This document shows positions 11,885-55,573 of a DNA stretch of 64,000 nt, one piece after another. A program made the position numbers and the translations under genes. Under the pieces are notes generated by a model. It saw only the letters and a program-made list of their open reading frames with translations, did no database searches and had not been told where the DNA came from. The DNA is from an uncultured Gemmatimonadales bacterium. Lineage in GTDB: Bacteria > Gemmatimonadota > Gemmatimonadetes > Gemmatimonadales > GWC2-71-9. Each line of letters opens with the position of its first letter. The stretch's first letter is position 1. The stretch is from positions 1,216,001-1,280,000 of the forward strand of contig CAWCFX010000001.1 in NCBI GenBank assembly GCA_963795085.1. Direction: 5' to 3'.

Positions 11885-12246
11885 GGGGGCGATCGGCTTC
11901 GACGGGTTTGATGAAGGAATCGCCGCGTGCCCAGGTCCAGGTTCCTGGTAAAACCGCTTGGAAAGATTCAACTGCCAATTCTGAACTGGCAATGGCCGCG
12001 TAAGCTGAGCTAACGCTCGCTTCACGCACCTTCCGCAGTTGTAGCTCGCCCGGCGCGACGCTGCGGAATCGCAAATCCGGGCTGGCAAGCCGCGCTGCTC
12101 CGTCGCGGTAAGCGAGATTTCAGGAGCTGATCTGTCAGGCGGTCGGTTCATCACCGGCTGATGGACGAAGCAGAGAGATGAGCCTACGCACGTAGACGTT
12201 ATTCTGGAGACTCATCCGGACCAGGGTTCGATTCCCTGCGCCTCCA
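11885..12246 (+). ncRNA. ssrA: tmRNA; tag reading frame ANSELAMAA* at 11974-12003
   Basis: The 5' GGGGGCGATCGGCTTCGACGG pairs with the 3' CAGGGTTCGATTCCCTGCGCCTCCA (alanyl acceptor stem with G-U pair and a T-arm). The internal tag ORF ends in AA-stop. Confidence 0.96.
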
Positions 12247-37507: not shown

Positions 37508-38080
37508 TCATGGCCTCGGTGGGGCTCCGGTCGCGCGTGCGGCGGTGTCTCGGTCCAGCATGGAGCGGAGCGGCGCCAGCCGCGGATCGGACGTGAAGCG
37601 GCGTCCGTAGTCCAGGTTGAACGCGTAATCGAAGTCCGGGGGGTTGGTCCCCTGGTTGTGCTGCATGATGGTCTCCAGCTTGTCCAGGCCCTTGGCGAGC
37701 CGCGCTTCCGCCGTCTCACACCCTTCATACTCATCATAGAGTGCCACGATCATTGCCTGTTGAGCCGGTGCCAGGGGCGTGACCAGCTCCACCAGGTCTT
37801 TGCGCTCGTCGGCGGCCTTGGCGCCCAGTGCTTCCTGCAGCGGTGCGGGAATATCGCCGCGCACCGCCTCTCCGAGGTCATGGACGACGAGCAACTGGAT
37901 GACCCGGTTGGTGTCCACGTCAGGAAACCGGTCCGCCAGCACCAGGGCCATCAGGCAAAGCCGCCAGCTGTGGGCTGCGACGCTTTCCGGCTGGCCGTCG
38001 GAGGTCCAGGCGCTCCGATGGGTCGCCTTGAGCCGCTCGGCGCGCCCCAGGAACTCGATGATGCCGGCCAGGTCATCCAT
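37508..38080 (-). CDS. HD-domain hydrolase (YfbR/HDDC2-like)
   Basis: LK...R, ESVA.HSW, HDL.E...GD and DKLE. Confidence 0.88.
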   Translation of the reverse strand: MDDLAGIIEFLGRAERLKATHRSAWTSDGQPESVAAHSWRLCLMALVLADRFPDVDTNRVIQLLVVHDLGEAVRGDIPAPLQEALGAKAADERKDLVELVTPLAPAQQAMIVALYDEYEGCETAEARLAKGLDKLETIMQHNQGTNPPDFDYAFNLDYGRRFTSDPRLAPLRSMLDRDTAARATGAPPRP

Positions 38081-38510
38081 GAGGTTCCCCGGTGAACACG
38101 GTGTCTGCGGCCAGCTCCTCGAAGCAGAGGTTGACGGTCCGGCCCACCGTGCGGGTGCGATGCACGGTGCCGGCCGGGACGGTGGCGGCCTGCCAGGGGC
38201 CCAGGCGCAATTCAGTGCCATCCGCCAGGTCGATCAGGAGGGTGCCTTCGAGCACGAGGAACAATTCGTCGGACGATGGATGATGATGCCAGGGATAATC
38301 GCCGTCGAAGGCCGCGAAGCGCAGGCAGTGCCCGTTAACCCGGTTGAGCACCAGGTTCTGGTAGCCGGCCGGCGCGTCCCCGGCCAGCCGCGCCAGGTCC
38401 ATGACCTGGAGGGCGGGATAGCTGACCGGCGTGTCCCGGTAGGATTCCGGGGTGAAGTCGTGGTCCGGCAAGGTGGCGGCTCCGCTCGGGTTTGTCGTAA
38501 TATAGGCCAC
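38073..38510 (-). CDS. Cupin domain protein
   Basis: WHHH..SDELF.VLEG and VP.G..HR. Confidence 0.85.
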   Translation of the reverse strand: MAYITTNPSGAATLPDHDFTPESYRDTPVSYPALQVMDLARLAGDAPAGYQNLVLNRVNGHCLRFAAFDGDYPWHHHPSSDELFLVLEGTLLIDLADGTELRLGPWQAATVPAGTVHRTRTVGRTVNLCFEELAADTVFTGEPHG

Positions 38511-38528
38511 CCCGTGCGGGAGCAGTCC

Positions 38529-39341
38529 TCACTGCCCGCAGTCCGTCTGGGGAATGTCGGAAACCTTGCCTTCGTCCTCGATCACGGCTGTCTGCCGCCA
38601 GAAGACGTCGTGCAGGGCCTGGGTCATGCCGCTGTCCACGTTGGCCGCCCGCACGGTGGCGAGGCGCTCGCCGAAGGTGGGAAGGGCGGGCACCGCGCCG
38701 CCTTCCCGTCCGGCCGGGGCAAACTCGCGGAGCCCCTTGCACTGGTAACAGACGCCCCGTTTGTTGACCAGCGAGCAGAGCCCTTCATAGGTGCTCTCCA
38801 TCTGGTGCCGTGCGCGCGACAGCGAGTGGCGAAAGGCTGATTCCGACAGGTCGAGAGCGGCCGCGGATTCCCGGTCGGTGAATCCCAGGACCTCCCGCAG
38901 GACCAGGGCGGCCTGCCCGTCCGGGTCCAGCGAGCGACCCACGCAGGTGAAGCAGTAGCCGATGTGTTCCTTGGCTTCATAATGGAAATCCGGGCGGCTC
39001 AGGGCCGTTCCGATTTCGCCGCCCAGCCGCTCGGAGCTGGCGCACGCGTTGGCGTGGGCGACCTGGGCGTGGGCCCGCCATCGTTTGCGCCGGCGGAGGT
39101 GGTCCACCGCGGCCCGGGCGCCAATGGCGCACAGCCAGGTGCCCACGCTCGAGTCCCCCCGGAACGACGCGCGGCCCTCCCAGGCCTTGAGCAGCGTCTC
39201 CTGCACGACGTCATCGGTATCCTCCGGGTGGCCAATCATCCGCCGCACCACCGCCCGGAGGCGGGGAATCTCGGGCGTGAAGATGGCGTCAAAGCCTTCC
39301 CGGGTGGCCCCGGCCACCGCCTCAATGTCTGATGCAGGCAT
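38529..39341 (-). CDS. ECF sigma factor with a Cys/His-rich insertion and C-terminal extension
   Basis: Region 2 (DDVVQET.LKAW, F.G.SS..TW), region 4, HIGYCFTC and CSLVNKRGVCYQC. Confidence 0.88.
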   Translation of the reverse strand: MPASDIEAVAGATREGFDAIFTPEIPRLRAVVRRMIGHPEDTDDVVQETLLKAWEGRASFRGDSSVGTWLCAIGARAAVDHLRRRKRWRAHAQVAHANACASSERLGGEIGTALSRPDFHYEAKEHIGYCFTCVGRSLDPDGQAALVLREVLGFTDRESAAALDLSESAFRHSLSRARHQMESTYEGLCSLVNKRGVCYQCKGLREFAPAGREGGAVPALPTFGERLATVRAANVDSGMTQALHDVFWRQTAVIEDEGKVSDIPQTDCGQ

Positions 39342-40312
39342 CAGTCGGTTCCTTCCTGGGAGGAGGCGAAGAGAGCCTGGAGCCGGAGTTCGAAGCCTTC
39401 CTTCTCCCGCTCGGCGATCAGTTCGGCGGCCACCAGGTTGGCGCTGGTGGTCACCAGGAAATCAAACGCCTCGAGATTCTCAGGCGCATCGGTCCGGAGC
39501 ATGCTGACGACCGAAGCGATTTCGGGTTCCGTCAGCAACCGGGCGCGGTGGGTCAAGCCGGCCACCGCCGCTCGAAAGGCCCGGAGCCGGGCGATCTGCC
39601 AGCGGAGGATGGAACGATTCCGGCCGGCACCGGACTCAGGGGCGGCCGCCAGGTCGTGTCCGATGTATACGGGCGTATCATCCGGCAGCATGGCGTCCAG
39701 TCGCTCCAGGGTGCGGATCCACTCCCGGGTGTGCCCGGACTGGGCAAAGGGAGGAATCCCGAACATCACGAGGTCGCCAACCACGGCGGCCTGCTGCCGG
39801 CCGGACCGGACCAGGAAGACCGCGTCCTCATACGATTCGCCCGGTCCCGTCTCGATCAGGGTGAAGGTCACCCCATCCACCTCGATGGCCTGGCCGCTGC
39901 CCAGGACCATGTCAGGCCGGGGCGCACCGGGCGAAGTCATGCCGAAGCGGGCGTAGTTGGTCTCATCCCAGGTGGCCAGTTGCCGCGCGACGCCCGCGCT
40001 CGACATGACCCTCGCCCCGCCGCGATCCAGCCAGGCCAGCGCGCCGTAATGGTCCACGTGCGCATGGGTCAGTAGCACCGCGTGCACCGACTTTCCCAGG
40101 ACGGTGCGTATCGAATCAATCCGGGCGGCGTGCGCCGGCGAGAATCCCGGATCAATGATCACCAGGTGGCGCCGGGTTTCGACCACGATAGTAGTGGCGA
40201 AGGCGGCGTCCGAATGGGTCAGGACCCGCACCCGGAACGCGTCGTCGGGAGAAGCCTGGCTCGTCGGGGCGGACCCCGTGAGCAGGGTGAGCAGGGTCAG
40301 GGTGGTGATCAT
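39341..40312 (-). CDS. Secreted metallo-beta-lactamase-fold hydrolase
   Basis: Signal peptide, THAHVDH, GD and GH. Confidence 0.85.
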   Translation of the reverse strand: MITTLTLLTLLTGSAPTSQASPDDAFRVRVLTHSDAAFATTIVVETRRHLVIIDPGFSPAHAARIDSIRTVLGKSVHAVLLTHAHVDHYGALAWLDRGGARVMSSAGVARQLATWDETNYARFGMTSPGAPRPDMVLGSGQAIEVDGVTFTLIETGPGESYEDAVFLVRSGRQQAAVVGDLVMFGIPPFAQSGHTREWIRTLERLDAMLPDDTPVYIGHDLAAAPESGAGRNRSILRWQIARLRAFRAAVAGLTHRARLLTEPEIASVVSMLRTDAPENLEAFDFLVTTSANLVAAELIAEREKEGFELRLQALFASSQEGTD

Positions 40313-53396: not shown

Positions 53397-54086
53397 TCAA
53401 GACCGCCGGAGTATCCAGAACTCCCCGGTCAATCCCACCTCGGCGAGCAATGCTTCGGTTTCTTCGACAGTGTGGCGGCGCCATTCGGGCTTGACCTTGT
53501 CCCGGTACCAGCCCCGGGCCAGCCGCCACCCCTGCTCGGGAGTGAGCAATGCGCCCCGCGAGAGGTCGCGGGCCTGGCACCAGCGGTCCACGTGCTCTTC
53601 CGACCGGAAGAGAAGCATGGTGCTTCAGGCGAACCCGATGTTCTCCCACCACTGCCGGGCCGGGACCGCGAAGTGAATGATCCCCTCGGCGTGCGCCAGT
53701 TCGCCGCCGGCGACGGCGATCCGGAGCGGGGCTCCGCAGTCGCCGCAGGGCGCCTCGATTTCCGCGTCCCGCCCCAGCGCCGCCGCGATCCCGAGGGCAT
53801 CCCAGATGCAGATGCCCCAATAGGTGATTCCCGCCGACCGGACCCGGAACCCCGAGGGAACGGCGCAGAACGGGTTGGCGGCCCAGATACCGCCGCCGTT
53901 GGGCGCCTGGATCAGCACCTTGCCCGCGGCGAGGTGCGCGATCGCCTGCCGCACCGATTCCTCCGGGTGGCCGAGTGCCGTGGCAATAGCGGCCGCCTGG
54001 GGTACCTGTCCCGTGGTGGCCGCGTGCTGAAAGAGATAGACACGGACCCCATCCGACATCGCTTCCGCCGCCGCATCGCCCGTCAT
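53397..54086 (-). CDS. MerB (organomercurial lyase)-like protein with in-frame UGA at 53625-53627; probable selenoprotein of 229 aa
   Basis: ORFs 53625..54086 and 53397..53618 share one frame. They give PF...P, CIWDALG (CxxD), CGDCG and WWENIGFA-U-STMLLFRSEEH, with a hairpin after the UGA. Confidence 0.82.
53588..53624 (-). promoter_or_regulatory. Putative bacterial SECIS element
   Basis: mRNA reads UGA-AGCA-CCAUG-CUU-CUCUUCC-GGUC-GGAAGAG-CA-CGUGG: a perfect 7-bp upper stem with a GGUC loop 19 nt after the UGA. Confidence 0.75.
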
Positions 54087-55573
54087 GCGATCTGCTCCGG
54101 TGAAGGGTTTTCGATGGCCCGGGCCAGGCCCCGCAACATGCCGCCGAACACCAGGTGGTGCAGAGGATAGAGCGCATACCAGTAGGCCCGCCCCCACAGT
54201 CCCACCGGGTCAAAGATGGCGGTCTGCCGGATGGTGGTCCCCGTCCCGTCCGGCGTCAACTCGAACTCCAGCCACGCCCGCCCCGGCAACTTCATCTCGG
54301 CCGCCAGCCGCAGCAGGCGGTCCGGTTCGATCGCCTCGACCCGCCAGAAATCCAGGGTGTCGCCCACGCGCAGGGTGGTGGGGGAGCGGCGGCCCCGTCG
54401 CAAGCCCGCACCGCCGGCCAGCAGGTCCAGGAACCCCCGCAGGCGCCACAGCCAGTTCCAGGCGTACCACCCGGTGGCGCCGCCGATCTGGCGGACCGGC
54501 GCGAACGCGCGGCCGGGAGGCGCGGTGACACGCACCGAACGGGAATCTACCAGCCGGGAACCGAAAGGAACGCCCCCCCACGTAGGTGGCTCCCCCGCCG
54601 AAGAGAGTGCATCGGACCAGCGCGTGGCCGCGATCTCCCGGTCCTCCCGGGCCAATGCGCGTTCGACCGCCTGGTCCACGCCCATCGGCACGATCGCCGG
54701 AAAGGTCTGCCGCGCGCCGGGATCACGGACGATGGTAGGGTGGATGATGCTCTCGATGAGCTTCCTGCCGATTCGGGCGTACACCGGCGTCACCAGCCCC
54801 AGCCACAGGCTGGAAAGAAACGGTGTCAGCACCGGCACCGGGATCATGCGGAGCCGCATCCCCCGGCGGGCCGCATACCGCCGCATGATCTCGGCGTAAG
54901 AAACCTGGTCCGCCCCGCCGATCTCGAAGACCCGGTACTGGCTGACCGGCAGCTCGAGCGCCGCGACCAGGTAGGAAAGGAGATCGTCGATCGCGATGGG
55001 CTGGGCCGACACATTGACCCAGCGCGGCGTGACCATGAGCGGCAGCCGCTCCACCAGCGCACGAATCATCTCGAAGGAAAGGCTGCCGGATCCGATCACG
55101 ATCGACGCGCGGAACTCGAGGACCGGTACCCCGGATTCCCCGAGGATCCGCCCGACCTCCTGCCGGCTGCGAAGATGAGGGGAGAGATCCTCGCCGGCCT
55201 GGCCGAGCCCGCCGAGGTAAATAATCCCGCGAACCCCGGCGGCACGGGCCGCCTGGCCGAAGTGAAGGGCCGCCGCCCGGTCGGCGGTCTCGAAGGATCC
55301 GGCCGACCCCATGGAATGGACGAGGTAGTACGCGATGTCCACGTCCTCGAAGGCGGGGGGCAGCGTGGCGGGGCTCAGTACGTCGCCGGCCACCGTCTCG
55401 GTTGCTGCACCGGTCCGGCCGCGGAGCGTGGCCGGGCGGCGGCTCAGGCAGCGGATGCGGTGGCCGGCGTGCTCCAGGAGAGGAAGGAGCCGTCCGCCGA
55501 CGTAACCGGTGGCGCCGGTGAGCAGGATCCGACGGGGCGGGGAGCCGGTCACCCGGGCGGCAGATTCAGCCAT
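54083..55573 (-). CDS. NAD(P)-binding SDR-like protein with a C-terminal DUF2867 domain (YbjT-like)
   Basis: TGATGYVG, YYLVHSM, S.HL.SR, GSGS.SFE, GG..GWY and AEMKLPG.AWL. Confidence 0.9.
   Translation of the reverse strand: MAESAARVTGSPPRRILLTGATGYVGGRLLPLLEHAGHRIRCLSRRPATLRGRTGAATETVAGDVLSPATLPPAFEDVDIAYYLVHSMGSAGSFETADRAAALHFGQAARAAGVRGIIYLGGLGQAGEDLSPHLRSRQEVGRILGESGVPVLEFRASIVIGSGSLSFEMIRALVERLPLMVTPRWVNVSAQPIAIDDLLSYLVAALELPVSQYRVFEIGGADQVSYAEIMRRYAARRGMRLRMIPVPVLTPFLSSLWLGLVTPVYARIGRKLIESIIHPTIVRDPGARQTFPAIVPMGVDQAVERALAREDREIAATRWSDALSSAGEPPTWGGVPFGSRLVDSRSVRVTAPPGRAFAPVRQIGGATGWYAWNWLWRLRGFLDLLAGGAGLRRGRRSPTTLRVGDTLDFWRVEAIEPDRLLRLAAEMKLPGRAWLEFELTPDGTGTTIRQTAIFDPVGLWGRAYWYALYPLHHLVFGGMLRGLARAIENPSPEQIA

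Follow-up and report, generated by a model that had tools for sequence, protein, structure and literature searches.

The organomercurial lyase MerB (MerB R831b; Protein Data Bank (PDB) entries 3F0O, 3F0P and 3F2F; EC 4.99.1.2) works with Cys96, Asp99 and Cys159, which a survey of mer genes gives, in the part of its text available, as strictly conserved and catalytic (PMC8261052). MerB2 from Bacillus megaterium (PDB 5C17) has a single Cys, Cys165, where MerB has Cys159, and a Ser at the position of the proton-donor Asp. Its gene is located in the mer locus of that organism. A member of the same superfamily (PF03243) that contains selenocysteine (Sec) has also been described: SaoL (NF040728) is, according to the accessible text of its preprint, a MerB-like selenocysteine-assisted organometallic lyase of Clostridioides difficile and other anaerobes, with Cys99, Asp102 and Sec162 as the equivalents of MerB Cys96, Asp99 and Cys159, and it is defined there by a Cys-Sec dipeptide, by the model NF040728 and by a nine-gene SAO locus in strict anaerobes (bioRxiv 10.1101/2022.07.06.499078). 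The accessible passages of a 2022 and a 2026 review of selenoproteins hold a single MerB-like selenoprotein, identified in the 2026 review as SaoL (PMC9312934, PMC13188914), and SaoL is the only published MerB-like selenoprotein in the full-text literature accessible to us, supplements aside. Here we describe a gene that lies on the minus strand at positions 53,400 to 54,086 of a 64,000-nucleotide stretch of DNA (the window) from an uncultured Gemmatimonadales bacterium (assembly GCA_963795085.1, contig CAWCFX010000001.1, positions 1,216,001 to 1,280,000), and whose product is best read as a member of a second, unannotated Sec clade of the MerB superfamily that is widespread in soil phyla.

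One reading frame interrupted by UGA

A preliminary description of the window proposed that two open reading frames (ORFs), listed separately at 53625..54197 and 53397..53618, are one frame split by the TGA at 53627-53625. The minus strand bears this out: a single frame of 229 codons begins at the ATG at 54086 and reaches its last sense codon at 53400, and the TGA at codon 154 is its sole interruption. The CIWD and CGDC motifs that the same description placed upstream of the UGA are both present. The features of the gene, each with its basis in brackets, are as follows.

53400..54086, minus strand: complete coding sequence of a MerB-like protein, its UGA predicted to be read as Sec (single frame, Pfam domain, structural model and fold matches)
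53625..53627, minus strand: UGA codon 154, predicted Sec, equivalent to MerB Cys159 and MerB2 Cys165 (alignments to 5c17, 3f2g and 3fn8; column conservation)
53397..53399, minus strand: true terminal stop, TGA (frame reading)
53799..53810, minus strand: CIWD motif with Cys93 (53810-53808) and Asp96 (53801-53799) (alignment to MerB; invariant in 57 aligned sequences)
53736..53747, minus strand: CGDC motif with Cys114, the equivalent of MerB Cys117, and the family-specific Cys117 (alignment; both invariant)
53865-53867, 53745-53747, 53736-53738 and 53673-53675, minus strand: Cys74, Cys114, Cys117 and His138, in that order (family conservation)
53595..53612, minus strand: hairpin of the selenocysteine insertion sequence (SECIS) type, with its 5′ arm at 53612-53606, GGUC loop at 53605-53602 and 3′ arm at 53601-53595 (fold, pairing in relatives and frozen synonymous sites)

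Very probably, Sec is inserted at codon 154 in a SelB-dependent manner, which would give an active site made of Cys93, Asp96 and Sec154. The Pfam MerB domain PF03243 extends across the TGA (residues 74-194, profile positions 2-125 of 126) and scores 101.5 bits against a cut-off of 27, and the halves searched separately each yield a partial domain, at 58.9 and 23.7 bits. Selection, too, extends across it. The median pairwise ratio of nonsynonymous to synonymous substitution rates (dN/dS), calculated for 1104 pairs among 56 genes, is 0.154 over the 85 codons before the UGA and 0.186 over the 60 codons after it, and purifying selection thus acts alike on either side of the TGA. Elsewhere in the genome TGA is an ordinary stop, and it ends both the upstream gene and the selenoprotein gene itself.

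The assignment of codon 154 to a catalytic column comes from HMMER alignments to solved structures, in which MerB Cys96, Asp99 and Cys117 are matched by Cys93, Asp96 and Cys114, respectively. The partner of codon 154 is Cys159 in the C160S chain of MerB, the adjacent Cys160 in one wild-type alignment, and the lone Cys165 in MerB2, which is the best sequence match (5c17, E 1.5e-9). These alignments to MerB and MerB2 place the column at the Cys159 position. The earlier proposal of a 229-residue selenoenzyme with Sec there is upheld, and the checks named with it as able to refute it (Sec machinery, homologues and reads, described below) all turned out in its favour. Across 57 aligned family sequences Cys93 and Asp96 are invariant, as are Cys114, Cys117 and His138, and Cys74 is nearly so. 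The third catalytic position of the protein is predicted to be Sec rather than Cys. The 57-row alignment kept 54 of 60 loci, those with a usable start codon in range, or 53 once L063 was removed; it does not contain L063 (probable frameshift near residue 178), L068 or L071. From this alignment AlphaFold2 produced a model with a predicted local distance difference test score (pLDDT) of 94.6 and a predicted template modelling (TM) score of 0.91, and a Foldseek search with the model retrieved, at E <= 0.001, only MerB2 (5c17, E 6e-10, TM-scores 0.66/0.73) and MerB (3f2f/3f0o, TM-scores 0.60/0.68). The modelled protein thus has the MerB fold, and a cytosolic member of the MerB superfamily is its best explanation.

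If the TGA were instead a real stop, the locus would encode a 153-residue N-terminal protein, perhaps accompanied by a 73-residue C-terminal peptide, and amount to a split MerB that lacks the Cys159 equivalent. Gene callers do split the locus at this point and the matching database proteins are 144-167 residues long. Moreover, an ATG that could serve for a restart stands three codons past the TGA (Met157, with two codons intervening) in 107 of 120 distinct genes with the TGA. All 120 of these genes have TGA as their internal stop, yet TAG or TAA closes 38 of them (terminal stops: TGA 82, TAG 23, TAA 15). The 13 remaining genes have CTG (6), ACN (4), ATC (2) or ATA (1) in place of the ATG, and on this ground we rejected a stop followed by a restart at Met157. 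The interruption also falls exactly on the catalytic Cys column, where the nearest relatives without TGA carry Cys; it is followed by a SECIS-type hairpin whose synonymous sites are frozen, and SelA was found in every carrier checked (both described below). A real stop is, in our judgement, very unlikely.

The hairpin downstream of the UGA

The hairpin CUCUUCC-GGUC-GGAAGAG was reported in the preliminary description directly 3′ of the UGA, with its loop 19 nucleotides away, and we find it as described, at 53612-53595. It comprises 18 nucleotides with 7 base pairs, its loop begins 19 nucleotides after the UGA, and its local fold has an energy of -9.6 kcal/mol. The 61 nucleotides around the site fold at -27.1 kcal/mol, compared with -19.4 +/- 2.7 kcal/mol for shuffled sequences (z = -2.83), and an equally good fold is reached by 1 of 200 shuffles. 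A model of the bacterial SECIS element, as given in the legend to Fig. 2 of the 2026 review, has a loop of 3-9 nucleotides, a stem of 4-16 base pairs, a G in the first two loop positions, a distance of 16-37 nucleotides from the UGA and a minimum free energy <= -7.5 kcal/mol (PMC13188914). The window hairpin lies within all four constraints of this model (4-nucleotide loop starting GG, 7 base pairs, 19 nucleotides, -9.6 kcal/mol), as do the hairpins of 40 of 61 relatives when a 24-nucleotide local fold is used.

For the comparison among relatives, hairpin columns were numbered from the U of the UGA, so that columns 16-21 pair with 28-33, and the pair 22:27 was added for GGUC loops. In all 95 distinct sequences the core pairs 18:31 to 21:28 are formed, and every one of the 17 one-sided changes in the core keeps the pair (U-A to U-G in 15, C-G to U-G in 2). 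Compensatory changes are seen at 16:33 (C-G, A-U, U-A, G-U), 17:32 (U-A, G-C) and 22:27 (C-G, U-A, G-C). The apical loops of the relatives read GGUC, CGGGAY, CGUGNN and similar. A stronger signal than covariation comes from the synonymous sites, which in 60 genes are frozen only over the hairpin, at codons 159-164: Leu159 is CTC in 45 of 45 cases, Phe160 TTC in 60 of 60 and Arg161 CGG in 44 and CGT in 16 of the 60 genes, with Glu163 as GAA in 56 of 60 and Glu164 as GAG in 47 of 50. Outside the hairpin, Leu columns of the same genes use 4-6 codons and Glu columns prefer GAG.

Some of the hairpin results weigh against a SECIS element. With the 24-nucleotide local fold, 21 of the 61 relatives miss at least one of the SECIS criteria, mostly the -7.5 kcal/mol threshold. 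Covariation is modest (7 compensatory cells, compared with 2.4 +/- 1.4 in shuffles, of which 5 of 500 reach 7), because most of the hairpin is invariant, and a control in which the pairing was slid by +1 gave a higher covariation score, 0.074 vs 0.064. The extension of the stem by CCAUG/CGUGG, also put forward in the preliminary description, exists in the window and is not conserved, as alignment columns 9 and 39 vary freely in relatives. Longer stems in general, this extension and an outer stem of columns 5-10 with 46-51, are weakly kept (9:47 pairs in 23 of 59 sequences) and were set aside, and the apical hairpin alone is treated here as the SECIS element. In the decoding that we propose, SelB carrying Sec-tRNA(Sec) would bind this hairpin while the mRNA is being translated, with the UGA then read as Sec.

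Contigs of other organisms in soil and hot-spring metagenomes match the window over only 31-58 nucleotides around the UGA and hairpin (within 53576-53654) and then diverge, a pattern that reflects strong nucleotide conservation of the UGA/hairpin element.

Relatives of the gene and the selenocysteine machinery

A collection of 5.8 billion proteins gave 1007 matches at E <= 0.001 among 8000 candidates scored, and 115 of the best 120 are 144-167 residues long. Of 13 of these best 120 that were aligned, 10 terminate with ...GFT, immediately before the UGA column, 2 are full-length proteins with Cys at the Sec column (P0004 and P0005) and one, the metagenome protein P0002, has Ser. Standard annotation had been expected to split the gene, and indeed the ORF list does so and database relatives end at the Sec column. 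Hundreds of entries of about 150 residues, named 'organomercurial lyase' or 'hypothetical protein', are very probably truncated selenoproteins, each short of one third of its length and of one catalytic residue. One relative (P0103) is fused to an N-terminal GNAT acetyltransferase (PF13302/PF00583), and its entry also ends at the Sec column.

At the nucleotide level, contigs from one genome per species contain 65 related loci, and all 60 that reach the column have TGA there. The other five are L065, L066, L067 and L069, which stop at a contig end before the column, and L068, which is broken near residue 100; L063 and L071 have TGA at the column and frame disruptions elsewhere. One row of the locus counts and alignments, L053, is from a genome flagged unpublished (G306). 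In metagenome contigs, searched with the Cys form P0004 as seed, we found 80 loci, with TGA in 76, TGC in 2 (L086 and L129) and no column called in 2 (L161, at a contig end, and L163), that is, TGA in 76 of the 78 loci reaching the column. In total there are 136 TGA loci and 2 TGC loci. The expectation that homologues would have Cys or UGA in this column thus holds, with P0002 and its Ser as the one exception. Carriers are labelled Acidobacteriota (including Thermoanaerobaculia, Terriglobia and Vicinamibacterales), Gemmatimonadota, Actinomycetota, Chloroflexota and a few others, and the UGA, the hairpin and the downstream frame are conserved in more than 130 relatives from at least four phyla. 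With the same TGA and hairpin present in 136 related loci, the feature lies well outside anything that chance would produce. Ala precedes Sec in the window protein, and relatives have Thr, Ala, Ser or Asn there.

The two TGC loci are the sole Cys forms inside the Sec clade, and they are 82-92% identical to TGA forms (L087-L091 were compared). In both, the Arg161 codon is now CGC instead of CGG, a codon (CGC) that no aligned TGA form uses, and the G[G/U] of the loop is lost; on sequence grounds this looks like a recent switch from Sec to Cys followed by relaxation of the SECIS loop. More distant Cys-form paralogues occur in the same phylum (L080 and L082, at 29-32% identity) and carry Cys at the Sec column. 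In this group (L080, L081, L082, L084) the CxxD motif is CAWC in L080 and CLYC in L081 and is kept as CAWD in L082, and L080 and L081 have no CGDC motif. One genome of the same order (G098) holds two full-length TGA-containing copies on different contigs.

A false stop could also come from decay to a pseudogene or from an error in sequencing or assembly. Genuine decay is seen in a few relatives, namely L083 (with a second TGA), L071 (frameshifted) and L068 (broken). The TGA of the window gene recurs in 136 independent loci, and the dN/dS downstream of it is close to that upstream. The preliminary description named TGC, TGT or TGG in reads as a refuting result; a 214-nucleotide soil-metagenome contig, possibly from the source sample itself, is identical to the window over 53427-53640 and shows TGA, with zero differences. 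We consider this explanation extremely improbable, and it is already effectively refuted.

The host genome (3.89 Mb, 93.4% complete) is equipped to decode UGA as Sec. The four components selA, selB, selC and selD named in the preliminary description are all found: SelA is present at 431.6 bits, SelB is recognized through its winged-helix domain, SelD is present at 384.9 bits and ARAGORN reports a tRNA-SeC with anticodon tca. The SelD gene, which has an in-frame TGA of its own, ...SLSHGAG[TGA]ACKLG (C4:64282-65202, locus L003), is predicted to encode a selenoprotein as well; hairpins downstream of that TGA include one with a GUC loop.

Co-occurrence was assessed in 301 evenly sampled genomes of the window's phylum with a match threshold of E <= 1e-20. 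MerB-like matches were found in 38 of the 301 genomes, at 39 places. Of these, 33 full-length places in 32 genomes, including the window genome (G000), have exactly one TGA, whose column was not confirmed place by place; the others are a decayed copy with two TGAs (G259), three full-length copies with no stop (G272, G203 and G139) and two partial copies with no stop. These copies without a stop belong to the distant Cys-form paralogues (29-32% identity). SelA is found in 243 of the 301 genomes and, compared by eye, in 32 of the 32 one-TGA genomes; two of the genomes counted (G157 and G057) have an unpublished flag, and both lack the family gene. The Cys-form copy in G203 and the partial copy in G136 occur in genomes where SelA was not found. 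SelA is also present in 5 of 5 carriers checked from other phyla. We take this co-occurrence as supportive rather than as a formal test, because related genomes are not independent.

The clade uses Sec almost exclusively, in soil phyla that are usually regarded as aerobic. The SelA count would make Sec use common in a largely soil-dwelling phylum, which fits poorly with the statement, in the available text of the 2026 review, that aerobic bacteria rarely keep selenoproteins (PMC13188914).

A scan of the genome for in-frame TGAs based on GC content at third codon positions returned 75 candidates, most of which look like gene boundaries and three of which look like selenoproteins. Two putative selenoprotein genes among the candidates, both outside the window, are a peroxiredoxin-like ORF (FYPGNDTPG[TGA]NRQLS, C1:917754-919943) and an AhpD-like ORF (NGCHY[TGA]IVHHG, C1:645108-646376), the latter with a GGG-loop hairpin downstream. 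At 38076-39461 of the window, minus strand, two long ORFs in the same frame are joined by a TGA (...DCGQ[TGA]GLLPHG...) and may be adjacent genes.

Comparison with described lyases and the predicted chemistry

The protein resembles SaoL in its superfamily, in having Sec at the MerB Cys159 position, in the truncation of its database entries at the UGA and, as far as the SaoL text available to us goes, in an uncertain substrate. It is nevertheless a different protein. Against NF040728 it scores 28.6 bits, with a cut-off of 140, and only residues 33-133 match; SaoL has a C-U motif, whereas the window family has GF[A/T]-U-S-T without the Cys-Sec dipeptide; and C. difficile SaoL has 213 residues compared with about 229 here. 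SaoL is encoded in a nine-gene locus, whereas the 65 loci of the present family share no neighbourhood (individual Sao families were not searched), and the hosts of SaoL are given in its preprint as strict anaerobes, whereas the carriers here are Gemmatimonadota, Acidobacteriota, Actinomycetota and Chloroflexota. The NF040728 score, the Ala-Sec pair and the absence of conserved neighbours rule out identity with SaoL. The remark in the preliminary description that MerB-like families with Sec have been reported is therefore right in that SaoL is in print, and SaoL belongs to a different clade from the window protein. None of the NCBIfam models (June 2026) that match is specific for the window family.

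With MerB the protein shares the fold, and MerB Cys96, Asp99, Cys159 and Cys117 all have aligned counterparts. It differs in having Sec for Cys159 without the vicinal Cys160, in the extra Cys74, Cys117 and His138 and in a longer C-terminal helical tail, and the two are about 18% identical in the Foldseek alignment. Canonical MerB was rejected as an identification on the basis of scores below the equivalog cut-offs and of a genome with no MerA, MerT or Hg-type MerR over cut-off. MerB2 is the best match in both sequence and fold, and its single Cys165 stands at the Sec column; it differs in carrying Cys rather than Sec and in having Ser at the proton-donor position, which is Asp in the window protein as in MerB.

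In the mechanism that we envisage, the metal would be held between the Cys93 thiolate and the Sec154 selenolate while Asp96 donates the proton, and protonolysis would run independently of a mer operon. Such MerB-like protonolysis of a carbon-metal(loid) bond by the predicted site is supported because Asp96 is invariant, and we lean slightly towards it. For the gene as a whole, a selenoprotein with MerB-like organometal chemistry is the explanation that we favour, with moderate confidence.

Several observations weigh against a lyase and give substance to an alternative, in which the protein is a genuine selenoprotein and Cys93 and Sec154 form a redox centre (a selenylsulfide) or a site for the binding or chaperoning of a soft metal. 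The curated cut-offs for MerB and SaoL are both missed, that for MerB by a wide margin (29.2 vs 193 bits for NF009710 and 24.7 vs 200 bits for NF033555). The preliminary description saw no merA, merR or merT in the window, and the 93.4%-complete genome agrees: there is no MerA over cut-off (best 318 bits vs 454), no match to MerT and no Hg-type MerR (best 30 bits vs 151; merP was not searched). BLASTP of the window neighbours and all-against-all clustering of ORFs gave no conserved neighbourhood among the 65 loci; besides the gene itself and its shadow frames, no gene cluster occurs in more than 7 of them. Cys74, Cys117 and His138, conserved in the family, have no counterpart in MerB or MerB2. 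Together with Cys114 they might form a structural metal site, or, were the protein not a lyase, might serve as a second metal site. Distant Cys paralogues put Cys in place of the proton-donor Asp (CAWC, CLYC). In addition, Hg-Se bonds are much stronger than Hg-S bonds, and this could hinder release of an Hg(II) product. Most known bacterial selenoproteins are redox enzymes, according to the accessible text of the 2022 review (PMC9312934). Against a redox or metal-binding function stand the invariance of Asp96, the proton donor in MerB, in 57 of 57 aligned members, the retention of the MerB fold with its Cys/Asp/(Sec) arrangement, and SaoL, which has Sec at the equivalent position and is also read as an organometallic lyase in the part of its preprint available (bioRxiv 2022.07.06.499078). 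We hold such a function to be possible, and less probable than organometal chemistry.

As to the target of a MerB-like lyase, a carbon-metal bond is the most probable, and organomercurials, methylmercury for example, come first among the candidate substrates. Caution over mercury, already voiced in the preliminary description, is warranted because context is lacking, the family scores stay below threshold and Hg-Se binding is expected to be tight. It is an unlikely idea that the family is a hitherto unrecognized selenoenzyme clade, abundant in Gemmatimonadota, Acidobacteriota, Actinomycetota and Chloroflexota of soil, whose members need no mer operon to demethylate methylmercury or to cleave some other organometal. 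Stable-isotope probing of paddy soil with 13C-methylmercury labelled Gemmatimonadota and Actinobacteria genomes without annotated merB, according to the accessible text of that study (PMC12130583), and the family could, if the idea is true, belong to the 'mer-independent' methylmercury degradation of paddy soils. The value of the finding would rise sharply if the enzyme demethylates methylmercury: surveys based on merB would then overlook a widespread demethylase, and the question of who degrades methylmercury in soil would become directly testable. Surveys that require Cys159 would drop the UGA-truncated Sec forms; that the mer-gene survey cited at the outset applied such a filter is our assumption. 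That Sec stands at the Cys159 position of the MerB fold in a second, apparently independent case suggests that selenium brings a real catalytic or affinity advantage there.

Genomic surroundings

The selenoprotein gene is directly preceded by one other gene.

54083..55573, minus strand: 496-residue fusion of an NAD-binding short-chain dehydrogenase/reductase (SDR)/NmrA-like domain with DUF2867 (stop codon and selenoprotein start codon share bases in ATGA)

The two genes are probably co-transcribed. The pairing with the SDR-DUF2867 gene is specific to the window genome, and this neighbour is not common to the 65 related loci; nor are the other local neighbours, an Amidohydro_2 protein, a DUF2254 protein and GlgE. 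The absence of a conserved neighbourhood makes the genomic context uninformative on the substrate. The selenoprotein gene is the only PF03243 gene in the genome. Elsewhere in the window, ARAGORN places a transfer-messenger RNA gene with the tag peptide ANSELAMAA at 11885-12246 (C1:1227885-1228246).

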